In this document: positions 1 through 21,744 of the stretch, piece by piece
How the letters are laid out: each line of letters starts with the position of its first letter
Numbering within the stretch: position 1 is the stretch's first letter
Source of the DNA: an uncultured Gammaproteobacteria bacterium
GTDB taxonomy: Bacteria > Pseudomonadota > Gammaproteobacteria > UBA9214
Assembly: GCA_963827755.1 (NCBI GenBank)
Contig: CAWHCQ010000034.1
Location: 1 to 58,657, forward strand
DNA: 58,657 nt
Direction: 5' to 3'
The notes under the pieces: model-generated
What the model saw: only the letters and a program-made list of their open reading frames with translations
The model's database searches: none
What the model was told of the DNA's origin: nothing
Position numbers and translations under genes: made by a program

Positions 1-681
1 CCCCTGCTGGCTAATGATGACATTGCCGACGATGTACGCACAGAGTTACGCTGGCTGGTACCGAGAATTCCCGGGCAGTTAACGGATGCTTTGCTGGATC
101 CTGATGTGCCAATGCTGGCACGACAACGATTGCCAGGTGTCCTCGAAGCCAGCCACAATCCACGTTCCATTGACGGATTATTGCTGGGCATGATGGATGC
201 GTCTTTTAACGTACGTTACAGTTGCGCCAGGGCACTGGCGCGAATGCGCTCGAGAAATGCCAGCCTGAAAATTCCCCGCGAAACGATCTACACTGCAATT
301 CGTGAGGAACTCGACGCTTCGATGGATGAGTGGGAGGTGCTCAGCGAGGAACTGAATCTTAGCGATGAGCAGGTGGAAGACGCGGGAAGTCCTCGCATCA
401 ACCGCAACCTGGAACACGTGTTTACCCTGCTGGCGCTTACCCTCGACCCGGATGCCGTCCATATGTGCAAGCAAGCCGCTTTCAGCAAGGACATCAATCT
501 GCGTGGTACCGCACTTGAATACCTGGAAAATGTCTTACCGGCCGGGCTTTACCTGGTACTCGTGCAGCGACTCGGTCTCAGTGAGGAAGGACGCAGCAGC
601 TCACGTTCGTTGCGTGAAATCATGAAAGAACTGAAATCCGTTGTGCAGAATGCGGGGCCGCACTGGTCAGATCGATCCTGA
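1..681 (+). CDS. HEAT-repeat protein, C-terminal part (5' truncated); resembles the tail of NTT/TLC-HEAT nucleotide transporter fusions
   Basis: Frame is open from base 1 to TGA at 679-681. HEAT-like units DASFNVRYSCARAL and LEHVFTLLAL...LRGTALEYLENVLP. Transporter part, if any, lies outside the window. Confidence 0.7.
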   Translation, partial: PLLANDDIADDVRTELRWLVPRIPGQLTDALLDPDVPMLARQRLPGVLEASHNPRSIDGLLLGMMDASFNVRYSCARALARMRSRNASLKIPRETIYTAIREELDASMDEWEVLSEELNLSDEQVEDAGSPRINRNLEHVFTLLALTLDPDAVHMCKQAAFSKDINLRGTALEYLENVLPAGLYLVLVQRLGLSEEGRSSSRSLREIMKELKSVVQNAGPHWSDRS

Positions 682-746
682 CCTGAGTGAGACAAAACTA
701 TTGCCGCAATGAGCACACAACTTTACGGGTATAAGGCGTAAAGTGC

Positions 747-2057
747 CTACTGTTGGTGCTCTACAGGCATCCCGACCGGCACCGGCACTGGTGCCGGTAT
801 CGGGTTGGCCTTCTCGATCAGCCGGTGAATACGCATGCCCATTGTTTGATGATCCACGGCCGAGTTCTTGCGCAGGATATTCGAAATCAGTGTAGAGATG
901 TAATGCAGTGGTCGACCGTCCAGGTGGTTTTCCACGATCGCGACCGAGTTCATGTAGTTTTTCACGTTACCCATGTACTTGCCGCATTTAAAACCTTCTT
1001 CTTCCTTGCAGCTGTAGAGGGATCCGGACTTGAAATACACGGCCGAGTCCCTTAGTGCCGGTGCCGAGGCATAACGAATTCGCCGCTCGGTCATGTAGAG
1101 CAGGCGCTTTATCTCGCGGCTGGAAAACTCATCCACCAGGCGACCCTGTTCCATGCGCAGGGTGAACAGCATCAGCTCCCTGGCAGTCCCGTAACTGTTG
1201 CCGCCGCCGGGCACTTTTTTCTTGCCGGTACGTGTAAAAAAACTTCCCTGGCGCAGCCGGTTGATATCCAGTCCGTTACGGGTAATCGGGTCGAAGAAGG
1301 TGGCCTGGAACAGTGCGGTCAGTTCCTTTCTCGGAGTTTCGCTGAAGAACCGCTGGATTTCTTCTTCCGGAACGGGATAGCCCTTGCCGTAGTGTTTCAG
1401 CAGCATGGCATCGCGCATGGTCATGGCGGCGGCGGCATTGGAACTGGCAGACAGCATCCAGTCAAGGTACTCCCAGAGCGAGCCTCGGTCGCCATCCTTC
1501 ATTTCGCGCCGGGTCAGTTTTTGTGTTTCGACATCGAACAGTCGAATATCGTGATGGTCCCAGTGAGAGAATTCATCGGCGGTAATGATCGTGTTTTTCA
1601 GAATATCCCGGCGCTTTGCAAGGTCATCCGGCCAGGCATCGGCCAGTGCCTGGAACAGGCCCAGCGCCACCACCATCTTGCCGACACTGCCGACATTCTG
1701 CGTGTGGTCACCACGGTGTTCGGCGTAGCGTGGATTTTCCGGGTTGCTCAGGTCCAGTACGGCGATTCCGTAGCGGCCTGCATTATTGCCCAGCAGGTTC
1801 AGGATTTGGCGGTTGAAAGCCGGGTCCGGGGCCGGCAGGTCAATGTCCGGGTAATCCAGCAGGCGCAGGTCGACCTCCGCCGTTGAAAGTTGCGCCCCCG
1901 GGGGTTGCTTGCGTCCTCGTATAACACCCTCATTCGCGAGGCGTGCACCTTCCACGCGCCGGATGCCGGTTTCCGCGTAACCATCCAGCGGATAGGCCGT
2001 CACCAGGGAAGGAGAGCCGAGCACCAGTAACAGCGGCACAGCCAGGAATTTAATCAT
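747..2057 (-). CDS. Secreted serine hydrolase, class A beta-lactamase-like / PBP fold
   Basis: Signal peptide MIKFLAVPLLLVLGSPSLVTA; SxxK (GSVGK), SxN (SSN) and K[ST]G (FKSGS) motifs in order; start overlaps the stop of the upstream dikinase gene. Confidence 0.85.
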   Translation of the reverse strand: MIKFLAVPLLLVLGSPSLVTAYPLDGYAETGIRRVEGARLANEGVIRGRKQPPGAQLSTAEVDLRLLDYPDIDLPAPDPAFNRQILNLLGNNAGRYGIAVLDLSNPENPRYAEHRGDHTQNVGSVGKMVVALGLFQALADAWPDDLAKRRDILKNTIITADEFSHWDHHDIRLFDVETQKLTRREMKDGDRGSLWEYLDWMLSASSNAAAAMTMRDAMLLKHYGKGYPVPEEEIQRFFSETPRKELTALFQATFFDPITRNGLDINRLRQGSFFTRTGKKKVPGGGNSYGTARELMLFTLRMEQGRLVDEFSSREIKRLLYMTERRIRYASAPALRDSAVYFKSGSLYSCKEEEGFKCGKYMGNVKNYMNSVAIVENHLDGRPLHYISTLISNILRKNSAVDHQTMGMRIHRLIEKANPIPAPVPVPVGMPVEHQQ

Positions 2058-4994
2058 CGTGGTATCTCCAGCATGTTTACTGTCTGGCCAAGGCGGCCTT
2101 CAAGCGTCTTGTCCATGTTGTTCAGGTAGCTGCTGCCGCGGGCCTGTTTGCTTTCCAGGAAGGGACGTATCTGAAACAGCTGCAGCTTGCCTTTCAGGAA
2201 ACCGAATTCGACATCTGCTGGCGCCGGCTTGCCTTCGTCATCTGTAATCGAGGGAAACTTTTGCGGCAGTTGTTTTGCAAATTGTATGAGCTGCCTGATT
2301 TCGTCCGGCTGTAAAACCGTATCACTGCCACTGGTCGGGACCTTTTCGACCCCGCCGCTGGCAACCGGGTTGCGGCGCCAGGGGGCCGTGGCCATGGCCA
2401 GTACCCGCACCGAGCCATCGCGTGTATCAATGCGCAGGGATTCGGCGGACTGGCCATCGACCGCGCCACCGACGCCTTCGTTGACGGCGACTGAAATAAT
2501 CGCGCGGTTGCCCGTATCGATGTCCTGGGTCACCAGCACGCCGGACTTGTCATTCGCCACCGACTTCAGCAATAGCACGGCAGGGTAGACATGCTCAGGC
2601 GTATCCATATGCGACTGCCGCCATGCAAACGCCCGGGCCGTGAACGGGGACGCCCAGACACGCGGAATGGCGTTAATCACGTTGTCCACCCCGATCACGT
2701 TCGGCAGGGTCAGGTTCAGACCGGCACCGGTAAAACCGGCAAGGTCCTCGACGTTGGTATCAGAGCGTACAAATACGCCATAGGTGCCGGTACCGAAGGC
2801 TTCGGCCATGGTCTTGCGCAGTGCGTTCCTGAAATCGTCATCCAGCTTTGCCGATGCAATCCGCTCATACACCGTGGCACGGAATTTCTCGGTAAATTCC
2901 TGCCTCCTGGCAGAGTCTTCCGGCATGGCCTGCATCGTGCGATATTGCTCGACCATCCATTCGAACATGGTCTTGCCTGAATTATCGTAGGGCTTGTCCA
3001 GCACCGTCTCCCGGAACACGCCAAAGGGAATGGCGACGCCCTGCGCGACGGCGTCGGGATAAGAGTGGCGCAATTCACCGAGCTTGGCAGCCTTTGGACC
3101 GACAGTGCGCCCGGAGTCATCTGCACGCAAGGCATCGAGGATAAGGAACTCCTTGACGGACAGGTCCAGCTTTTCCAGGTCCGGTCGAATGACAGCACCG
3201 GACTCCTGCTTGTCCTTGCCGAACACCGCGTCCCAGTCCGCGCCATCCGGCCCCAGTTCAACCAGTCCTGCCGGGCTGACCGCCATGACGACCGCCTTGC
3301 CGTCATGCTTGCGTATGGCCGGAATCAGTTCCTCGTCCACGCCAACGTTGGGTATCCCCAGGTTGCGGGCAAGCAGCTGGACATGCGACAGGGGATTGCC
3401 TTCACCGGCCGTCATGATGCCGGCGATCGGCGGTAGCTCGGAAATGGTTTCCGGCAACAGGTAGATACCGCGTGCTTCAAAAGCGGCGTGTTCATCAAGG
3501 TCCGGTGTGGCATGCAGCACGCCACGTGCCAGCCCCGGGTTGAGGGCGCGAAAGCCGACACCGATTTCCTTGCCGAAGAGTTTGTGCTGGACACCTGCCA
3601 GGCGGTTTGCATCCTGCAACAGCCCGTCAAGAACTTGCGAATAAAACAGCAGCGGGCTGCCGCGCAACTGGTCCTGGATAAACAGCAGTGCCAGCGGTTC
3701 GATCCGTGCCAGTTTCTCCATTGATTCGTAGAACTGGAAGCGCAGCCCCTGGGTTCCCCAGCCGGGCACCCGCCCGAGGTAGCCCAGCGTCTGCATGTAG
3801 CCGGCCAGGGAAATTTCCGACTTGCCGAGGCCGTCGAGCGACTTGGTTATTTCGCGACGTCCGCGTTGATTGATGTTGCCGGTTCCATAGGCGGCGTCCA
3901 CGGCTGCCTTCAGCCACTCGACACGCTGCTGCCGGGTGGCCTTCGGGAGTTTTTCACGCAGGTCCGCACTGGCACTGAAGTTCACCGTCTCGACTGCGAG
4001 TCCAAGGTCGAGTACCCGCAACCGTGCCGAGGCACTCCTGATGCGCGGCAGGGCATCTCGCAGATCCGCCAGCAGACGGGCGGTTACCGTGAATTGATGC
4101 TCGGCCGCAGGGTTGCTTTCCAGTTGTTGCGCGGCAGTGTGCAGGATTTCCTGCAGCCAGGGTCCCGCGGTGAATATCGCGGCTGTTTTATTCAGTTCCA
4201 CGGGCAGGGGTGCAGCCTGGTAAACCAGGTCAATCTCGCGGGCCAGGCTTTTGTATTTTTCCCTGAGTTCCGGATTTTTCGTGGCGGCCGCGTAATCGCG
4301 AACCAGTTGTGCATCGCTCGCCTCGGGGGTGCCGTGAATCTTGCCGCGGATGTCCTTGAAGCCCTTGTCTTCTTCTGACAGGGAGGCCGACACCTGGCGG
4401 ACCTTCTGGACAGACGCGGTATCCTCGCCATGCGGTAACAAGGCCGCGCCGATGCGCAGCGCCGGGTACCGGAATCCGATCCAGTTCGAGTCGGCCGCCA
4501 GGGTCAGCAACAGGTCCCGTCCGCCATTGCGTTCACCTTCTTCCTGGATGGCGCCCCGGTAGAAGAGGGCGCGGCGCAGTATCCAGCCATTGTCCACCCG
4601 GATGAGGAATTTCTCGATCAGCAACTGGTTATAGGCGTCGATGAATCCAGGCTGGTTGACGTCAACATCTGTTTTGTACCCGGCGAGAAAGTTCGCGATC
4701 AGGTATCCCTCGTCCCTCAGCTTTCTGGTCTTGTCGCTCCATGAGCCGTGCTGGTGGCCGCCGCCATGTTTGACGCAGGCATACTCCCTGGGCGGCAGGA
4801 TGGATCCGTCATTGCAGAACCAGCGCAGCTCCTTGAAGGGACCCCTGTCGCGGCTCTTCATTTCCCTGATCCATTGCCGGTATTCCGGATTGTTTTCAGC
4901 TGCGCCGAGTGGCGCTGTCGGATGAGGCATGACTGCCTGCTGTGAAACATACGTTGAAGGCGAGCAATATCGTTATTATTGAACAAACTTTCAT
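2054..4994 (-). CDS. Secreted PEP/pyruvate-binding (PPDK/PEP synthase-like) dikinase with phospho-His domain; one frameshift near the 5' end
   Basis: ORF 2054-4930 has His-swivel motif GEGNPLSHVQLLARNLGIP and ATP-grasp motifs GPKAAKLG, FVRSDTNVEDLAGFTGAGL, DVEFG...LFQIRP. An upstream ATG at 4994 with GGAGG RBS encodes signal peptide MKVCSIITILLAFNVCFTAGSHA in another frame. Confidence 0.85.
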
Positions 4995-5075
4995 TCTCGC
5001 CTCCGTGGAAAGGATAATGATGTCAACAGGCAGGAAAACAGAGAATAGCAAAACCGGGGGCTCACGGCATCTACA

Positions 5076-5850
5076 CTAGAAAGTACGTATACCCCTGTTC
5101 AGCGGGTGTTGTCGAAACACAAGGACATTGCCCGCGGCATCCTGAAGAATTAATCTGAGACTGGTTCCTGGCAAAGGTGTACTGTGTAACGCTGCCGGTT
5201 TGTTTTGCAAGCAGGTTGACAATATTATTTCTGATCTGGATCGTGCCGCTGATTGCAGCTCTTTCTGTTCCGCAGTAGAAACTGGTTTCCCCTGACCTCC
5301 AGGATCTCGCCGGTATTCCCGTACCAGCGTCCGTTGAGCAAGGCAGAAGTGGGATACTCGCCGGCGGGGTTTGCGTATCTCGCAGGAAAGCCGTTGTTCG
5401 GTATTCCATAGGGATGCATGCAGGATAGCGGTTGTTCGGTATCCCGTACGGGTTCGAGTAGGCGGGTGACATGAACGGGTTTTGCCCGCCGCATAAGGGT
5501 ATTCCAGGGGTTGCTCCACGGATTGCCCGTCATGCCGGACGACCAGGGCGACATCCCCATGCCGTTCAGCGGCACTCCACCCAGGCCGGACCAGGGATTC
5601 ATACCGGTCATGCCCCAGGGACTCGCATGCCGCTCATCAGGGGCAGGGTGGTCATGCCGAGCCCGAGGGAATTGCCGCCGCCCCAGCCAAGGTTGCCTGT
5701 ACTGTCACCGGCAACGTCTGACATGGCCCTCATCATGCCCAGCATCATGCGAAACATAATGCTGAACATGTCACCGTACTCGTTGGCAGCAGCAGGCCGG
5801 GCACATGACAATGCGCAAATGAGCAGGTAAATGGCGGGTCTGTTTTTCAT
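5076..5850 (-). CDS. Secreted low-complexity Gly/Met/Pro/Trp/Asn-rich protein with small C-terminal beta domain (several frameshifts)
   Basis: Signal peptide MKNRPAIYLLICALSCARPAAA; pieces across frames give GMNPWSG, GMSPWSSG, GNPWSNPW, PYGIPNN repeats, then LNGRWYGNTGEILEVRGNQF. Confidence 0.6.
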
Positions 5851-6111
5851 TTAAATAATATGTCGTTAGCTGGCCTTTTTAATCAAGTGTAGAAGATCGG
5901 ACCGATTATCAGATAACATAGTTCAATAATACTATATATTGTGCCTTGCTTCCAAAGACATCCTATATTTGGTAGCAACAGGGGCGTCGGTGTCTGGCTG
6001 CGATTCGGTTGACCTGACGGCCCTTGAGATTGAGGGCGGGGAAGCTTGCATGGAGGTAAATATCAGCACACATGGTACACTTTGCCGGATAACTCTATTT
6101 CACTGAATCTC

Positions 6112-9100
6112 ATGAAAAAAATCACTGAATTACTGGACGGGCGCATCCTCTTTCTGGATGGCGCCATGGGGACCATGATCCAGCGCCACAAGCTGGAAGA
6201 GGCGGATTACCGCGGTGAGCGCTTTGCCGACTGGCCCTCGGACCTGAAAGGCAATAACGACCTGCTCAGCCTGACGCAGCCCGGAGATCATCCGTGATAT
6301 CCATACGCAGTACCTCGAGGCAGGCGCGGATATCATCGAGACCAACACCTTCAACTCGACGCGCGTTGCCATGGCCGACTATGGCATGGAAGAGCTGTCC
6401 TTCGAAATCAATGTCGCATCGGCAAGAATCGCTCGCGAGGCGGCTGATGCGCTGACGGCAAAAACACCCGACAAGCCACGCTTCGTTGCCGGTGTGCTGG
6501 GTCCAACAAACCGCACTGCCTCGATATCCCCCGACGTCAACGATCCGGGTTTTCGCAATATTTATTTCGATGAACTGGTTGACGCCTACACCGAGTCCAC
6601 CCGTGCGCTGATCGAGGGTGGTGTCGATATCATCCTGATCGAGACCATATTCGATACGCTGAATGCAAAGGCCGCCGTGTTTGCCGTCGAGCAGTATTAC
6701 GAAGACTCGGGCAGCCGCTTGCCGGTGATGATTTCCGGCACCATCACCGATGCATCCGGCCGTACCTTGACCGGGCAGGTAACCGAGGCATTCCTGAATT
6801 CACTGCGTCATGCAAGGCCGCTGTCCATCGGTCTCAACTGTGCACTCGGTGCTGAACAGATGCGCCAGTATGTCGATGAGTTGTCACGGCATGCCGATAT
6901 TCGCATTTCGGCACATCCGAATGCCGGGTTGCCGAACGAGTTTGGCGAATACGATGAAACACCGGCGCAGATTGCCGCTGAACTGGGTGACTGGGCGGCC
7001 AGTGGCTACCTGAATATTGTCGGTGGCTGCTGCGGCACCACCCCGGAGCACATCAGGGCGATCGTCAAGGCGGTCAGTCCGCACCCGCCTCGCAAACTGC
7101 CCGTGATCGAAAAACAATGCCGCCTGTCAGGTCTTGAACCCTGCAATATCGGGCCGGACAGTCTTTTCGTGAATGTCGGCGAACGCACCAATGTCACCGG
7201 TTCGGCGCGTTTCAAGCGTCTCATCATGGAAGGCGATTTCGATACTGCGCTGGCGGTGGCACGCGAGCAGGTTGAAAACGGCGCGCAGATCATCGATATC
7301 AACATGGATGAAGGCATGCTGGACTCAAAGGAAGCAATGGTGCGCTTTCTCAACCTGGTTTCCGCTGAACCGGATATTTCCCGCGTGCCGGTCATGATCG
7401 ATTCATCCAAGTGGGAGATCATCGAAGCCGGACTCAAATGCATCCAGGGTAAAGGCGTGGTGAATTCCATCAGCCTGAAGGAAGGCGAAGAAGAATTTAT
7501 CCGTCATGCAAAACTCGTGCAGCGCTACGGTGCCGCCGCCATCGTCATGGCATTCGACGAACAAGGCCAGGCGGATACCTGCGAGCGCAAGGTCGAGATT
7601 TGTACGCGGGCTTACAGGATCCTCACCGAAAAGGTCGGCTTTAACCCGGAGGATATTATCTTCGATCCGAATATTTTCGCCATCGGCACCGGCATCGAGG
7701 AACACAACAATTATGGTGTTGATTTCATCGAGGCCACCCGCGAGATAAAGCAGACGCTGCCCCACGCGCTGGTGTCCGGTGGCGTTTCCAATGTCTCGTT
7801 CTCGTTCCGCGGCAATAACCCGGTACGCGAGGCGATTCACGCCGTTTTCCTCTACCATGCCATCAAGGCCGGCATGGACATGGGCATCGTCAATGCCGGG
7901 CAACTGGCAATCTATGAAGACATCCCCGCCGCACTGCGCGAACGGGTCGAGGATGTCGTCCGGAATCGCCGCGAGGATGCCACCGAGCGCCTGCTGGAAA
8001 TAGCCGCTGAATATGCCGGCGATGGTCAAGAAAGTCGTTGCAGAAGATCCTGAATGGCGCCAGTGGGAAATCAACAAACGCCTGGAACATTCGCTGGTCA
8101 AGGGTATTGCTGATTTCATCGAGGCCGACACCGAGGAAGCCAGGCTGGCAGCGGAAAAGCCGCTGGATGTGATTGAAGGCCCCCTCATGGACGGGATGAA
8201 CGTGGTTGGTGACCTGTTCGGGGCCGGCAAGATGTTTTTGCCCCAGGTGGTCAAATCTGCGCGCGTGATGAAAAAGGCCGTGGCCTACCTGCTGCCATAC
8301 ATGGAAACGGGCAAGGGTGAAGCGGTGCAGACCAATGGCCGCATCCTGATGGCGACCGTCAAGGGCGACGTGCACGATATTGGCAAGAATATCGTCGGCG
8401 TCGTGCTGCAGTGCAACCGTTACGAGGTCATTGATCTCGGGGTCATGGTTGCGGCTGAAACCATTCTCAAAACGGCACGCGAGAAGAATGTCGATATTAT
8501 CGGCCTGTCGGGACTGATTACGCCATCTCTGGACGAGATGGTGCACCTTGGCAAGGAAATGCAACGCCAGGGCTTCGACTTGCCGCTGTTGATCGGTGGC
8601 GCAACGACTTCACAGATTCATACCTCCGTCAAGATCGACCCGCAATACAGCGGTGCGGTGGTCTACGTACCCGACGCCTCCCGCGCGGTCGGTGTCGCAA
8701 GTTCATTGTTAAGCGAAGACAGGCGCAAGGATTACATTGCCGGGATCAAGGAAAAATACCGGCAGTTACGCGAACAGCGTGCCGGCCAGCAACAGTCACG
8801 CCAGCTCGCCACGATTAAGGAGGCGCGTGCCAACAAGTTCAGCACAGACTGGGGGAAATACCAGCCGGCAAAACCCGAATTCCTCGGCCTGAAGGTTTTT
8901 GACGACTATCCACTGGCCGAGTTGATTGGCCATATTGACTGGAGTCCGTTCTTCAAGGCCTGGGAACTGGCCGGAAAATATCCAAAAATTCTCGATGATG
9001 AAATCGTCGGCACGGAGGCCAAACGCCTGTTTAACGACGCACAGGCCATGCTGGAGAAGATTGTCAGTGAAAAATGGCTGCAGGCCCGGGCAGTCATCGG

Positions 9101-9788
9101 CCTGTTTCCCGCCAACTCGGTCGATGACAGTGACGTGCAAATCTACACGGATGACACGCGCACGGAGGTGCGGACCGTATTCCATTTCCTGCGCCAGCAG
9201 ATGAACCGGCGTAACCAGGCGCCCAACCACAGCCTGGCCGATTACATTGCGCCGAAAGAAACCGGCATAAAGGATTACATGGGTGCTTTTGCAGTCACCA
9301 CCGGGATCGGCATTGAAGACAAGGTTGCCGAATTCGAGGCCGACCATGACGATTACAACAGCATCCTGCTGAAGGCACTCGCAGACCGGCTGGCCGAGGC
9401 CTTTGCCGAACGCATGCACGAGCGCGTGCGCAAGGAATTCTGGGGTTACGCCACGGCCGAGAACCTGAGTAATGAAGAATTGATAAAAGAGGAGTACCGC
9501 GGTATCCGCCCGGCACCCGGGTACCCGGCCTGCCCGGACCATACGGAGAAGGGCCTGCTCTGGGACCTGATTGACCCGGCCGCCAATGCCGGTATGACGC
9601 TCACCGAGAGTTTCGCCATGTTGCCCACGGCCTCGGTTTCCGGGTTTTACTTTGCCCATCCGAAGGCCCGCTACTTCGGTACCGGCAAGCTGGCACGCGA
9701 CCAGATCGAGGACTACGCACAGCGCAAGGCCATGAAAGTCGAGGAAGTCGAGCGCTGGCTGGCATCCGTCCTCGGTTATGACAACTAG
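6112..9788 (+). CDS. metH: Cobalamin-dependent methionine synthase (frameshifts near 6280 and 8025)
   Basis: [44 protein letters not shown]12 motif and [12 protein letters not shown] activation domain across three ORF pieces. Confidence 0.97.
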
Positions 9789-19161: not shown

Positions 19162-20323
19162 GCATTATGACGTGGTCGTCATCGGCGGCGGCATCCACGG
19201 GGTCGGTGCGGCACAGGCCGCGGCCTGCGCCGGCTGTTCCGTACTGCTGATCGAAAAAACCGCGCTGGCGGCAGGCTCATCGAGCCGTTCCAGCAAGCTG
19301 ATCCACGGCGGCCTGCGTTATCTCGAAGGCCTTGACTTCGGACTCGTGCATGAAAGCCTGAGAGAGCGCGCCATATTGCGAAGGATTGCACCCGAACTGG
19401 TGCAGTTGCGTCCGTTTCACATTCCGGTCTACCCGGAAACCTCGCGCCGGCCGCTGACCCTGCGGGCCGGCCTGACCCTGTATGCCGTGCTCGGCAATCT
19501 GCGCGCCTCGAGCCGTTTCAGAAAACTTGCGCGCAGCGAATGGGACGGTCTCGACGGCCTGAGTACAGACAGGCTGCAGGCCGTGTTTCAGTATTTTGAT
19601 GCACAGACAAATGACAGTCTGCTGACGCGGGCCGTGATGCAGTCTGCAATCGACCACGGGGCGATACTTTCCTGCCCGGCTGAATTCCACGCCGCCCGGA
19701 TCAGTACAGCGGGCTGTGAGATCAGCTACGGGGAGAATGCCGTTGAAAAATCATGTTCAGCCTCGGTACTGGTCAACGCGGCCGGCCCCTGGGTAAACAC
19801 CGTGGCTGAACGTATCAGCCCGGCACCGAAAGGAATGCAGATCGACCTGGTTCAGGGTGCCCACCTGATCATGGAGGAGGGCCTCGAGAAGAACTGCTAT
19901 TACATGGAGGTCCCGGTGGACAAGCGTGCCGTTTTTCTTCTGCCCTGGGGCGAACACTCCATGCTCGGCACGACAGAAAACAGCTACACGGGCGACCCGG
20001 AGAACGTGGCCATCCTCGACCGCGAAGAGGCCTACCTGCTGGAGGTTCTACGCTATTACTTCCCGCAGCGCTCACCACAGGTGCGCGAACGGTTTGCCGG
20101 GCTGCGGGTGTTGCCGCTCTCCGCTGATGCCGCGTTCAAGCGCTCACGTGAAACCCACCTGCAGCTGGATAACCCGCATCAGCCAAGGCTGGTCACCATT
20201 TACGGCGGCAAGTTGACCGGTTACCGTGCCACAGCCGCGAAGATCATGAAACTTGTGCAGCCGACGCTGCCGGGCCGAAAGGCCGTGGCCGACACGGCCA
20301 GACTGATGCTCAGGCCCGTCTAA
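19154..20323 (+). CDS. glpD: FAD-dependent glycerol-3-phosphate dehydrogenase/oxidase-like protein (short form)
   Basis: IGGGIHGVG, SSRSSKLIHGGLRYLE, NAAGPWV, FAGLRVLP, GGKLTGYR. Confidence 0.82.
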   Translation: MTEHYDVVVIGGGIHGVGAAQAAACAGCSVLLIEKTALAAGSSSRSSKLIHGGLRYLEGLDFGLVHESLRERAILRRIAPELVQLRPFHIPVYPETSRRPLTLRAGLTLYAVLGNLRASSRFRKLARSEWDGLDGLSTDRLQAVFQYFDAQTNDSLLTRAVMQSAIDHGAILSCPAEFHAARISTAGCEISYGENAVEKSCSASVLVNAAGPWVNTVAERISPAPKGMQIDLVQGAHLIMEEGLEKNCYYMEVPVDKRAVFLLPWGEHSMLGTTENSYTGDPENVAILDREEAYLLEVLRYYFPQRSPQVRERFAGLRVLPLSADAAFKRSRETHLQLDNPHQPRLVTIYGGKLTGYRATAAKIMKLVQPTLPGRKAVADTARLMLRPV

Positions 20324-20324
20324 C

Positions 20325-21744
20325 ATGGCACCGAGCTGATCCTCGCGATCGATCAGGGCACGCATTCAACCCGCGCCATTGTCTTCGACGGCCGGGGCGC
20401 GGTGGTGGCGCTGGCGCGCAGGCCGGTGACGCTGCAGCGCCGCAGCGCAACCGAGATCGAACAGTCAGCCGACGGGATCCTGCAGTCCGTGCAGGCGGTT
20501 GTCGAGGAGGTGCTGCACCATCCGGACGTGGAGCGCGGCGCGGTGCGCGCGGCCGGCATGGCAACACAGCGTTCCAGCGTGCTGGCCTGGACACATGACA
20601 GCGGCGCGGCACTCGGCCCGGTACTCAGCTGGCAGGACCGGCGCAGCGAACAGGCGCTGCGCCACTCGCCGCGCACGAGACGGAAATCAGGAACATTACC
20701 GGTCTGCCCCTGTCGCCGCATTACGGTGCCGGGAAGCTGCAGTGGCTGTTGCAGCAGGCGGCATTGGTGAGGCGCGGGATGCCGGTTCACTGGTCATGGG
20801 GCCGCTGGTCAGCTATCTGCTGCATCACCTTCGTCGCGGGCACGCCTGAAAGGGTCGATCATGCGAATGCCTCGCGCACCCTGTTATGGGACCTGCACAC
20901 CCGCGACTGGAGCAAGCGGCTGCTTGAACTGTTCGCCATCCCGCGTGCGCTGCTGCCGGCGTGTCAGCCAATCTGTTCCGATTACGGGCGGATCCGTCGA
21001 ATACTGCGATCCCGCTGACGGCCGTGAACGGTGACCAGACCGCTGCCCTGTATGCGCAGGGCAGGCCATCGATGCACACCATTCGCGTCAACATCGGTAC
21101 CGGCGCCTTTGTGCTGCTGCCCGTCGACGACCCTGCCATACGGCCCGCCGGCCTGCTTGCAGGCATTTCGCAAAGTGATGCGCAGAGTGCCAGCTACTAC
21201 ATCGAGGGAACCGTCAATGGTGGTGCCAGCGCATTGAAATGGGCCGCACAACGCTACGGGATCAGCGGGATAGAAGAACAATTGCATGACCTGGCTCGAG
21301 ACGGTCACGGACCCGCCGCTGTTCCTGAATAGCGTCGGCGGGCTGGGCGCGCCCTGGTGGAAGCCGGGCCCGAAACCCGGTTTTGTCGGCGAGACGCCCT
21401 CAAGCCCCGTTGCAGCGGTGGCGGTCATCGAAAGTATTATCTTCCTGGTAGAGGCAAACGTTGCCCTCATGCAAGGCGTCAACAGCGCCGTGAAAAATAT
21501 ACAGGTCAGTGGCGGCCTGTCGAACCTTGACGGCCTCTGCCGGAAACTGGCCAATCTTTCAGGGCTGCCCGTGCATCGCCCGGTGCAGGTCGAAGCCACC
21601 GCCCGCGGCATTGCCTGGCAGGCCGCCGGTTGCCCGAAAGACTGGCCTGCAAGCGGACCGGGTGAGACCTTTGAACCGGTTAAGGATGCGGCGCTGGCTG
21701 CGCGTTACCGGAGGTTTACAGAGATACTGCAATCATCCCCGTGA
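20325..21744 (+). CDS. glpK: FGGY-family carbohydrate kinase, glycerol kinase-like (multiple frameshifts)
   Basis: LAIDQGTHSTRA, ATQRSS, SWQDRR, ANASRTLL, GDQTAALY, GGLGAPWW, SGGLS, EATARG. Confidence 0.8.

Follow-up and report, generated by a model that had tools for sequence, protein, structure and literature searches.

The window analysed here, positions 1 to 58,657 of contig CAWHCQ010000034.1 of an uncultured Gammaproteobacteria bacterium (assembly GCA_963827755.1), includes one end of an envelope module conserved among bacteria, in which the genes of a dikinase-like protein, of a serine hydrolase with the beta-lactamase fold (hydrolase A) and of a putative nucleotide carrier stand side by side. 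This dikinase-hydrolase-carrier gene set is widely conserved and undescribed: the dikinase and hydrolase A form an obligate pair across genomes, and the tie of this pair to carriers of the TLC/NTT family (PF03219) is very strong. From conserved motifs and predicted export signals, we propose that the dikinase may phosphorylate a periplasmic substrate, drawing on ATP which the adjoining carriers would export, a reading to which we assign a probability of about 0.5. Comparative genomics supports this interpretation, and the mechanism stands as a proposal. Throughout, L numbers denote the loci of relatives and G numbers genomes, with G000 being the window's own genome and C34 the window's contig. 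The parts of the module found in the window are the following.

2054..4930, minus strand: dikinase-like protein, main open reading frame (ORF) of 958 residues, comprising an N-domain, a swivel-His domain and a C-terminal ATP-grasp domain (ORF and Pfam).
3521..4930, minus strand: N-terminal domain of the dikinase, residues 1–470, presumed substrate domain (AlphaFold2 and family search).
3338..3460, minus strand: swivel phospho-His domain, residues 491–531, with the His516 codon at 3383–3385 (sub-threshold PF00391 match).
2135..3106, minus strand: ATP-grasp nucleotide-binding domain, residues 609–932 (PF01326).
4896..4994, minus strand: signal-peptide ORF (MKVCSIITILLAFNVCFTAGSHA...), in a frame that differs from that of the main ORF (three-frame translation).
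4903..4910, minus strand: approximate site of a 1-nucleotide indel between the signal peptide and the mature protein (DNA alignment with L004).
5000..5004, minus strand: GGAGG ribosome-binding site, 5 nucleotides 5' of the ATG at 4994 (read from the sequence).
747..2057, minus strand: hydrolase A, a Sec-signal-bearing serine hydrolase of the beta-lactamase fold, 436 residues (ORF and Pfam).
1..681, plus strand: 3' end of an NTT-HEAT carrier gene, 226 codons, cut at the contig end (L004 orthologue).

The carrier fragment is convergent with the genes of the dikinase and hydrolase A, which overlap each other by 4 nucleotides (2054–2057), the dikinase stop lying within the start of hydrolase A. 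A sequence-only reading of this DNA had described the dikinase as an N-terminal region followed by a phospho-His domain and an ATP-grasp domain, encoded by a gene that overlaps the gene of a signal-bearing hydrolase of the beta-lactamase fold. Both the architecture and the overlap are confirmed, and the motif that it singled out, LSHVQLLARNLG with its His codon at 3385–3383, is present and contains His516.

In a sample of 400 genomes drawn evenly from the window's class (one further genome went unscored), the dikinase profile found a match in 34. Hydrolase A was present in 33 of these 34 and in none of the 366 others, the single exception (G044) holding only a fragment of the dikinase at a contig edge. 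A PF03219 match was found in 62 genomes, comprising 33 of the 34 dikinase-positive ones and 29 of the 366 others (32/33 against 28/365 when the unpublished genomes G044 and G301 are left aside), and in 0 of 14 control genomes. The co-occurrence of three families that the sequence-only reading had anticipated is borne out by these counts. In 24 of the 34 genomes a carrier and the dikinase share a contig and stand no more than 12 kb apart; in a further 3 (G055, G063 and G254) the carrier adjoins hydrolase A on a different contig. It lies elsewhere in the genome in 6 and was not found in 1 (G330). Within the families f3, f16 and f19, presence and absence of the dikinase, hydrolase A and the carrier coincide, and among five Halieaceae isolates that have no carrier nearby, four hold a PF03219 gene elsewhere and the fifth, G001, has none detectable.

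The module can be read over a longer stretch in the near-identical locus L004, where its genes follow one another in this order.

Small secreted protein rich in Met, Gly and Trp.
Dikinase, 979 residues, with signal peptide.
Hydrolase A, its start overlapping the dikinase stop.
NTT-HEAT carrier, opposite strand.
Hydrolase B, 310 residues, Beta-lactamase2 family, with signal.
Class B acid phosphatase with a lipoprotein signal.
TLC2 carrier, 463 residues, opposite strand.
serS.

A scan of species-representative genomes matched at least 597 stretches, at least 535 of which encode a relative of the dikinase, and the best 80 loci were kept; hosts of dikinase loci include cultured Parahaliea, Parahalioglobus and Agaribacterium as well as metagenome-assembled genomes labelled Desulfobacterales and Desulfobulbaceae. 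Of the 69 loci with 1.4 kb or more of downstream DNA, tblastn over the 80 loci places hydrolase A immediately after the dikinase, and on its strand, in 62. The 33 of the 80 loci that are fully flanked (9 kb or more to either side) include 32 with hydrolase A, 30 with hydrolase B, 11 with TLC2, 10 with NTT-HEAT, 20 with either carrier and 5 with the acid phosphatase. The carriers were counted at 35% identity or more, with a matched length above 300 residues for TLC2 and above 400 for NTT-HEAT, a threshold that drops weaker TLC-like genes (about 25% identity) in L010, L027, L032, L036, L059, L061, L064, L077 and L080. Agaribacterium haliotis (L067) has the genes of hydrolase B, the dikinase, hydrolase A and TLC2 all on the same strand, with an overlap of 4 nucleotides between the ORFs of hydrolase A and TLC2.

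The fragment at 1–681 had been read, from the window alone, as a convergent HEAT protein resembling the C-terminus of NTT-HEAT transporters. Its HEAT matches in Pfam are weak (E = 1.2e-3, below the cut-off); its L004 orthologue, however, shares 92% identity with the 226-residue fragment across 224 aligned residues and forms a single ORF of 724 residues, the counterpart in L009 (720 residues) matches PF03219 TLC at E = 8e-13, and a copy on contig C12 of the window's own genome, frameshifted and 83% identical to bases 1–681, continues into a membrane domain that matches PF03219 TLC at E = 7.9e-15. Because the orthologue is this similar and runs in one ORF, and because its counterparts carry the TLC domain, the fragment is, by homology, the tail of an NTT-HEAT carrier whose predicted TLC membrane domain lies beyond the contig end. 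The likeness to NTT-HEAT transporters thus stands, with a TLC domain in the counterparts, but there is no separate HEAT protein. The missing 5' part of the gene is on no other contig of G000. The carrier that most often accompanies the dikinase is not NTT-HEAT, which stands in only 10 of the 33 fully flanked loci, but a paralogue lacking the HEAT region, TLC2.

A profile built from 21 TLC2 proteins aligns over its full length (18–458) with the solved 'ADP,ATP carrier protein 1' (9j3n) at E = 3e-15. A crude count gives 9–10 transmembrane helices for the carrier against 12 expected and does not place the HEAT domain, which we take, from MFS topology, to be cytoplasmic. In a quick carrier tree, with Shimodaira–Hasegawa-like approximate likelihood ratio support only and with NTT-HEAT rows shorter than 700 residues left out, an NTT-HEAT clade and 6 rows of canonical NTTs, taken from small genomes within the class, form groups of their own, and the dikinase-linked TLC2 clade (25 rows, support 98) joins a sister clade (6 rows, support 99) at a support of 96. 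While the NTT-HEAT gene and the full-length TLC2 alignment link these proteins to the NTT/TLC family, their clades lie far from the canonical importers, occur in free-living sediment and marine hosts and are linked to exported enzymes, and the export that we propose would run opposite to every characterised member. In its available part, the survey of Major et al. (2017, PMC5381601) called the function of the NTT-HEAT fusion in free-living bacteria unknown.

Five loci (L032, L036, L059, L077 and L080) carry, at about 15.2–16.9 kb and immediately past hydrolase B, another TLC-like gene with about 25% identity to TLC2; in L032, L036, L059 and L080 it stands between hydrolase B and the NTT-HEAT carrier, and L077 has no NTT-HEAT gene. 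Judged by homology, some modules encode more than one carrier of the TLC superfamily.

Turning to the dikinase itself, Pfam assigns residues 609–932 to PPDK_N (PF01326; E = 2.7e-27, 96.4 bits against a cut-off of 27), and the family profile matches the ATP-grasp domain of the solved PEP synthase 8a8e at E = 6.4e-23. The PEP-utilizers match at residues 491–531 (PF00391; E = 5.9e-4, 19.8 bits) lies below the 23.1-bit cut-off; some dikinase homologues carry a precomputed match to this family, and in a weak second stretch of the family profile (7.4 bits), His516 is aligned with the catalytic TSH of solved PEP synthases (8a8e, ...TSHAAIVSRELGIP...). At least 90% of 105 family members retain His516, and the motifs GPKAA, RSDTNxEDL, DxEFGF and QxRP, which by comparison with PPDK are presumably ligands of ATP and Mg, are nearly invariant among these members down to 28% identity. 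Judged by motif conservation, the catalytic apparatus of the dikinase is intact, and ATP would be its phosphate donor. A word-based search scored 8000 candidates, of which 1586 are relatives at E ≤ 1e-3; the best 120 are 805–1001 residues long, bear at most the name 'PEP/pyruvate-binding domain-containing protein' and include homologues of 958–1001 residues with 67–87% identity. Across orders and phyla, the dikinase is 52–87% identical, and most genomes have a single copy.

Residues 1–470 match no Pfam family at E ≤ 0.1 and no NCBIfam model. An AlphaFold2 model of this N-domain built with 105 sequences reached a predicted local distance difference test score (pLDDT) of 92.4 and a predicted template modelling score of 0.90, and is built largely of helices, with one small beta-hairpin; two of its cysteines, Cys39 and Cys52, form a conserved pair. 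It replaced a model of the full-length dikinase from 13 close sequences, which at a pLDDT of 48.7 was unusable. Foldseek found no match in the PDB at E ≤ 1e-3 (best TM-score about 0.15), VIA-align wide gave only generic helical-bundle matches (Z ≤ 11.5 over 86–98 residues) of a kind common for helical proteins, and the ESM Atlas held no usable match. The region that had been called uncharacterised is thus confidently folded in the model, and no solved fold was matched to it by Foldseek or VIA-align wide. A search with the N-domain alone gave 623 cluster representatives at E ≤ 1e-3; of the 150 matches listed, the full-length ones have about 930–1050 residues and match from about residue 20–80, and no other architecture was seen. 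We presume that the modelled fold is a new helical substrate-binding domain.

All 16 dikinase homologues whose N-termini were read have an n-region containing Lys or Arg, a hydrophobic core and an AxA-like site. Of 270 proteins, 195 that start with M and have 930–1070 residues were taken as full-length members, and 179 of them, some with identities as low as about 30%, carry an N-terminal signal-like segment according to a crude hydropathy test rather than SignalP (a 10-residue window near the N-terminus with mean Kyte-Doolittle hydropathy of at least 2.0); the 16 misses are mostly borderline (1.9–2.0) or truncated gene calls. The dikinase signals show no conserved twin-arginine motif, so that the enzyme would be exported unfolded and its charging with phosphate before export is unlikely. 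Hydrolase A starts with MIKFLAVPLLLVLGSPSLVTA in the window; its mature N-terminus (AYPLDGY...) could be located in 64 of 67 ORFs, and 62 of these 64 have a signal. Hydrolase B has one in 43 of 48 ORFs of at least 270 residues, and the class B acid phosphatase has a lipobox-like motif in 10 of 11. We also counted for export the conserved Cys pair in the dikinase N-domain and an invariant Cys pair, C350/C358, in hydrolase A. Predicted export signals are conserved on the dikinase and its partners, and the dikinase would reside in the periplasm.

The secreted dikinase of the sequence-only reading therefore stands for the homologues but not for the window copy as assembled, in which the signal is out of frame. 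Three-frame translation shows that the signal peptide starts at the ATG at 4994 (MKVCSIITILLAFNVCFTAGSHASS... / MKVCSIITILLAFNVCFTAGSHASSDSAT...) and its frame stops at 4896, while the 958-residue ORF starts at 4930 and has no signal peptide. In the DNA alignment with L004, the window has one extra base near 4903–4910, and in L004 and P0005 the same signal peptide runs in frame into the mature dikinase. A contig of a related strain from the public run X1 differs by +1 behind 4903 and −2 at 4909, a net −1. Among the public sequencing runs, the listing named no RNA run, and none contained more than 0.18 of the sequence words. The gene of the small secreted protein upstream is also broken by a frameshift in the window and is intact, at 242 residues, in L004, and metH (B12-dependent methionine synthase; 6046–9788, plus strand) is split into the overlapping ORFs 6046–6297, 6371–8053 and 8013–9788, its orthologue in L009 being a single ORF of 1224 residues. 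Because these two further genes are also split in the assembly and the related-strain contig shows a net −1 at the same site, the dikinase frameshift is likely an assembly indel rather than the mark of a pseudogene.

Hydrolase A matches Beta-lactamase2 (PF13354; E = 8.7e-7, 28.9 bits against a cut-off of 22), and its SxxK, SxN and KxG motifs (S124/K127, S205/N207 and K343/G345) are invariant in 32 orthologues; the same motifs stand in 45 of 48 hydrolase B ORFs. Together with their signal peptides, these motifs liken both hydrolases to class A beta-lactamases and PBP-A-type DD-peptidases, from which hydrolase A differs in its length of 436 residues, in its large insertions and in occurring only together with the dikinase. 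Searches for solved relatives yielded none for hydrolase A, its sole solved sequence match being OXY-1 at E = 0.21, and no match at E ≤ 0.01 for hydrolase B, and the ESM Atlas returned only hydrolase A's own family. In L009, a third gene of the Beta-lactamase2 family (19548–21017, minus strand; an ORF of 489 residues, 52% identical to hydrolase A) lies between hydrolase B and the acid phosphatase.

The plant and algal glucan and phosphoglucan water dikinases (GWD and PWD) consist, according to the available part of PMC13553574, of a substrate-binding N-terminal region, a His domain and a C-terminal ATP domain like that of PPDK and PEP synthase, and the order of residues 1–470, 491–531 and 609–932 in the window's dikinase agrees with this, as the sequence-only reading had held. 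By analogy, the beta-phosphate would probably pass to the His and then to the substrate. In contrast to GWD and PWD, the dikinase has a helical N-domain, and neither CBM45, CBM20 nor another carbohydrate-binding module was found on it by Pfam and fold searches; its family is bacterial, bears a Sec signal and is coupled to PBP-like hydrolases and TLC carriers. Since it is without the starch-binding modules, we do not count it as a member of GWD/PWD. With PEP synthase and PPDK it shares a homologous ATP-grasp domain and, by a sub-threshold match and a weak alignment of the catalytic His, a probable His domain, but these enzymes are cytoplasmic, their domain order is the reverse, and Pfam found no match on the dikinase to their C-terminal PEP-utilizers_C TIM barrel (PF02896), so that the dikinase is neither of them. 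NCBIfam gave only partial, far sub-threshold matches to its ATP-grasp part: PEP synthase models reached at most 99 bits against cut-offs of 598–1063, and the models of rifamycin phosphotransferase (RPH) and of the prodigiosin ligases PigC/RedH matched at E = 5e-25 and 1e-17. L009 also encodes an ordinary PEP synthase separately.

RPH, PigC and RedH share the ATP-grasp and probably the swivel-His machinery with the dikinase, but the matches to them cover only the ATP-grasp domain, they are not known to carry an export signal, and their domain order is presumably different. The dikinase is not an RPH. In the eukaryotic secretory pathway, kinases of the Fam20C type use lumenal ATP supplied by an ATP/ADP exchanger. 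The module resembles that arrangement in combining an enzyme that would act topologically outside the cytosol with a putative ATP carrier, whereas the protein families are unrelated, the compartment is another one and there is no homology.

In the mechanism that we propose, the dikinase would be exported by Sec into the periplasm, where its ATP-grasp domain would bind ATP and transfer the beta-phosphate to His516 of the swivel domain, the gamma-phosphate going to water. The His domain would then carry the phosphate to a substrate bound on the N-domain, in the manner of glucan water dikinase. Carriers of the TLC/NTT type would bring ATP to the periplasm, probably in exchange for the AMP or ADP and the phosphate produced, and the periplasmic class B acid phosphatase, where present, may dephosphorylate AMP. 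The two PBP-like serine hydrolases, of which hydrolase A appears translationally coupled to the dikinase, would act on the dikinase's substrate. Owing to their constant company, our guess for this substrate is a polymer of the envelope or a derivative of such a polymer; both the export of ATP by the carriers and the identity of what is phosphorylated are things that we purely infer.

Several observations weigh against periplasmic phosphorylation on exported ATP. The counts across genomes overstate the independence of the cases because the sampled genomes are related, and two dikinase-bearing genomes, the complete-looking Halieaceae isolate genome G001 and G330 (90% complete, 520 contigs), gave no PF03219 match; at the thresholds used, a carrier is missing from the nearest 10 kb in 13 of the 33 fully flanked loci. 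On the enzyme's side, the PF00391 match lies under the Pfam cut-off, the window's dikinase as assembled has no in-frame signal peptide, and the N-domain fold gives no hint of a substrate in Foldseek, VIA-align wide or the ESM Atlas. ATP in the periplasm is, moreover, expected to leak through porins. As for the carriers, the branch to the canonical NTTs in the quick tree measures 4.55 substitutions per column, because of which neither substrate nor direction can be transferred from characterised importers, and all NTTs characterised in the available part of PMC5381601 import.

The last point also speaks for an alternative in which the dikinase is periplasmic but the carriers take up AMP, other nucleotides or the phosphorylated product, with ATP arriving by another route. 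The two dikinase-bearing genomes that gave no PF03219 match would fit it, as would the periplasmic acid phosphatase, found in 5 of the 33 fully flanked loci, which points to nucleotide salvage. We nevertheless regard such uptake as unlikely: it leaves the source of ATP unexplained, and both the skewed distribution of PF03219 (33/34 against 29/366) and the overlapping hydrolase A and TLC2 ORFs of L067 are most simply understood if the carrier serves the enzyme's co-substrate. Furthermore, an inside-negative membrane potential favours the exit of the more negative nucleotide, that is, of ATP over AMP or ADP, as with the mitochondrial carrier.

A periplasmic detoxification or resistance island, in which a toxic small molecule would be inactivated in the manner of rifamycin phosphotransferase, is compatible with ATP export. 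The NCBIfam model of the rifamycin-inactivating phosphotransferase matches the ATP-grasp part at E = 5.1e-25, far below its cut-off, and two or three Beta-lactamase2-family proteins with intact SxxK, SxN and KxG motifs accompany the dikinase. Set against this are the order of RPH, presumably ATP-grasp first and His last, and an N-domain that in the fold searches resembled no solved structure, the RPH entries 5hv1 and 5fbs included. In addition, the identity of 52–87% across orders and phyla, mostly in single copy, makes the dikinase look more like a housekeeping envelope enzyme than a resistance factor. We consider detoxification quite improbable, and to the same degree that the beta-lactamase-fold proteins hydrolyse the same or related compounds. 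It seems very improbable that there is no exported ATP-using enzyme at all, with the N-terminal segment serving as an uncleaved anchor on the cytoplasmic side, or with ATP use lost in favour of binding or scaffolding and the window copy perhaps a pseudogene. The frameshift in the window copy, the sub-threshold PF00391 match and the use of a hydropathy test in place of SignalP would agree with this; in the homologues read, however, Lys or Arg precedes the hydrophobic segment and AxA-like sites follow it, the neighbouring proteins carry export signals as well, and relatives have the gene in one frame. The near invariance of the ATP-grasp and His motifs over 105 members, down to 28% identity, likewise argues that catalysis is retained.

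Beyond the dikinase, the carrier neighbourhoods of 8 dikinase-negative genomes included 3 in which the carrier is followed by a twin-arginine aldo/keto reductase (PF00248). A reductase profile matched in 65 of the 400 genomes at E ≤ 1e-70, and in 11 of these 65 the reductase lies less than 0.5 kb from a PF03219 match; 10 of the 11 are dikinase-negative. Of the 10 reductase N-termini read (all but that of the unpublished G301), 9 have a motif of the type RR-x-[FLA]-[LI] and a hydrophobic stretch, and 1 has KRKLL. The loci combining a sister-clade carrier with the reductase are the following.

L085:2788-5038, carrier and reductase.
L086:6003-8278, carrier and reductase.
L087:6538-8826, carrier and reductase.
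L091 and L098-L103, further carrier and reductase loci.

Two sister carrier clades thus each appear to adjoin a predicted exported enzyme of a nucleotide-dependent family, the reductase, whose family uses NAD(P)H, paralleling the case of the dikinase. At L089:307-4288, in a dikinase-negative genome, a carrier of the reductase-linked clade adjoins a signal-bearing protein of 852 residues with pectate-lyase-like and bacterial Ig domains.

Two further observations concern the surroundings of the module in the window. One is the gene upstream of the dikinase.

5071..5850, minus strand: small secreted protein rich in Met, Gly, Pro and Trp, frameshifted (ORF fragments).

This protein, encoded at 5410-6138 in L004 (242 residues), has repeats such as GMSPWS and NPW, and its L009 counterpart matches no Pfam family. 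It was rejected as a core part of the module, as tblastn found it in only 5 of the 79 loci other than L004, all close relatives. The other observation came from a search of the window's own genome, G000, in which C12:1-3443 overlaps window positions 1-3440 at 83% identity, contig end to contig end, with several frameshifts in hydrolase A and the NTT-HEAT gene on the C12 side. The contamination of the bin is 5.38%, and the overlap suggests either that the bin mixes two related populations or that the consensus was collapsed. The C12 copy was first taken for a paralogue, an idea dropped when the joint gene order of C34 and C12 proved to be that of the single locus in L004 and L009. This shared order and the many frameshifts of the C12 part make it likelier that C12:1-3443 and C34:1-3440 represent the same locus in two related populations, with contig ends that overlap.

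A review (PMC7391070) gives it as a general rule that the periplasm contains no ATP and that envelope processes must therefore be powered from the inner membrane. In a literature search that included few subscription journals, neither an exported dikinase of bacteria nor ATP export by NTTs turned up in any paper, and none later than 2017 gave a function for NTT carriers in free-living bacteria. The family in question is large, with at least 535 loci in species-representative genomes, about 8% of the sampled genomes of the class and some Desulfobacterota, and its dikinase keeps every ATP-binding and phospho-His motif, yet bears an export signal and is tied genetically to the only known bacterial family of ATP/ADP carriers. 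If our reading is true, ATP would be spent outside the cytoplasm, NTT carriers would gain a function in free-living bacteria, and an enzyme with a new substrate domain would be making an unrecognised phosphorylated component of the envelope; cultured, harmless marine hosts such as Parahaliea and Agaribacterium make the idea directly testable. More tentatively, and at somewhat less than even odds, free-living Gram-negative bacteria may run a periplasmic nucleotide economy, in which divergent TLC/NTT carriers, NTT-HEAT among them, would export ATP, and the sister clade perhaps NAD(P)(H), to feed enzymes exported by Sec or Tat, the dikinase and the twin-arginine aldo/keto reductases being examples. 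Such an economy would explain the presence of NTTs outside parasites and organelles, and would qualify the rule of an ATP-free periplasm.

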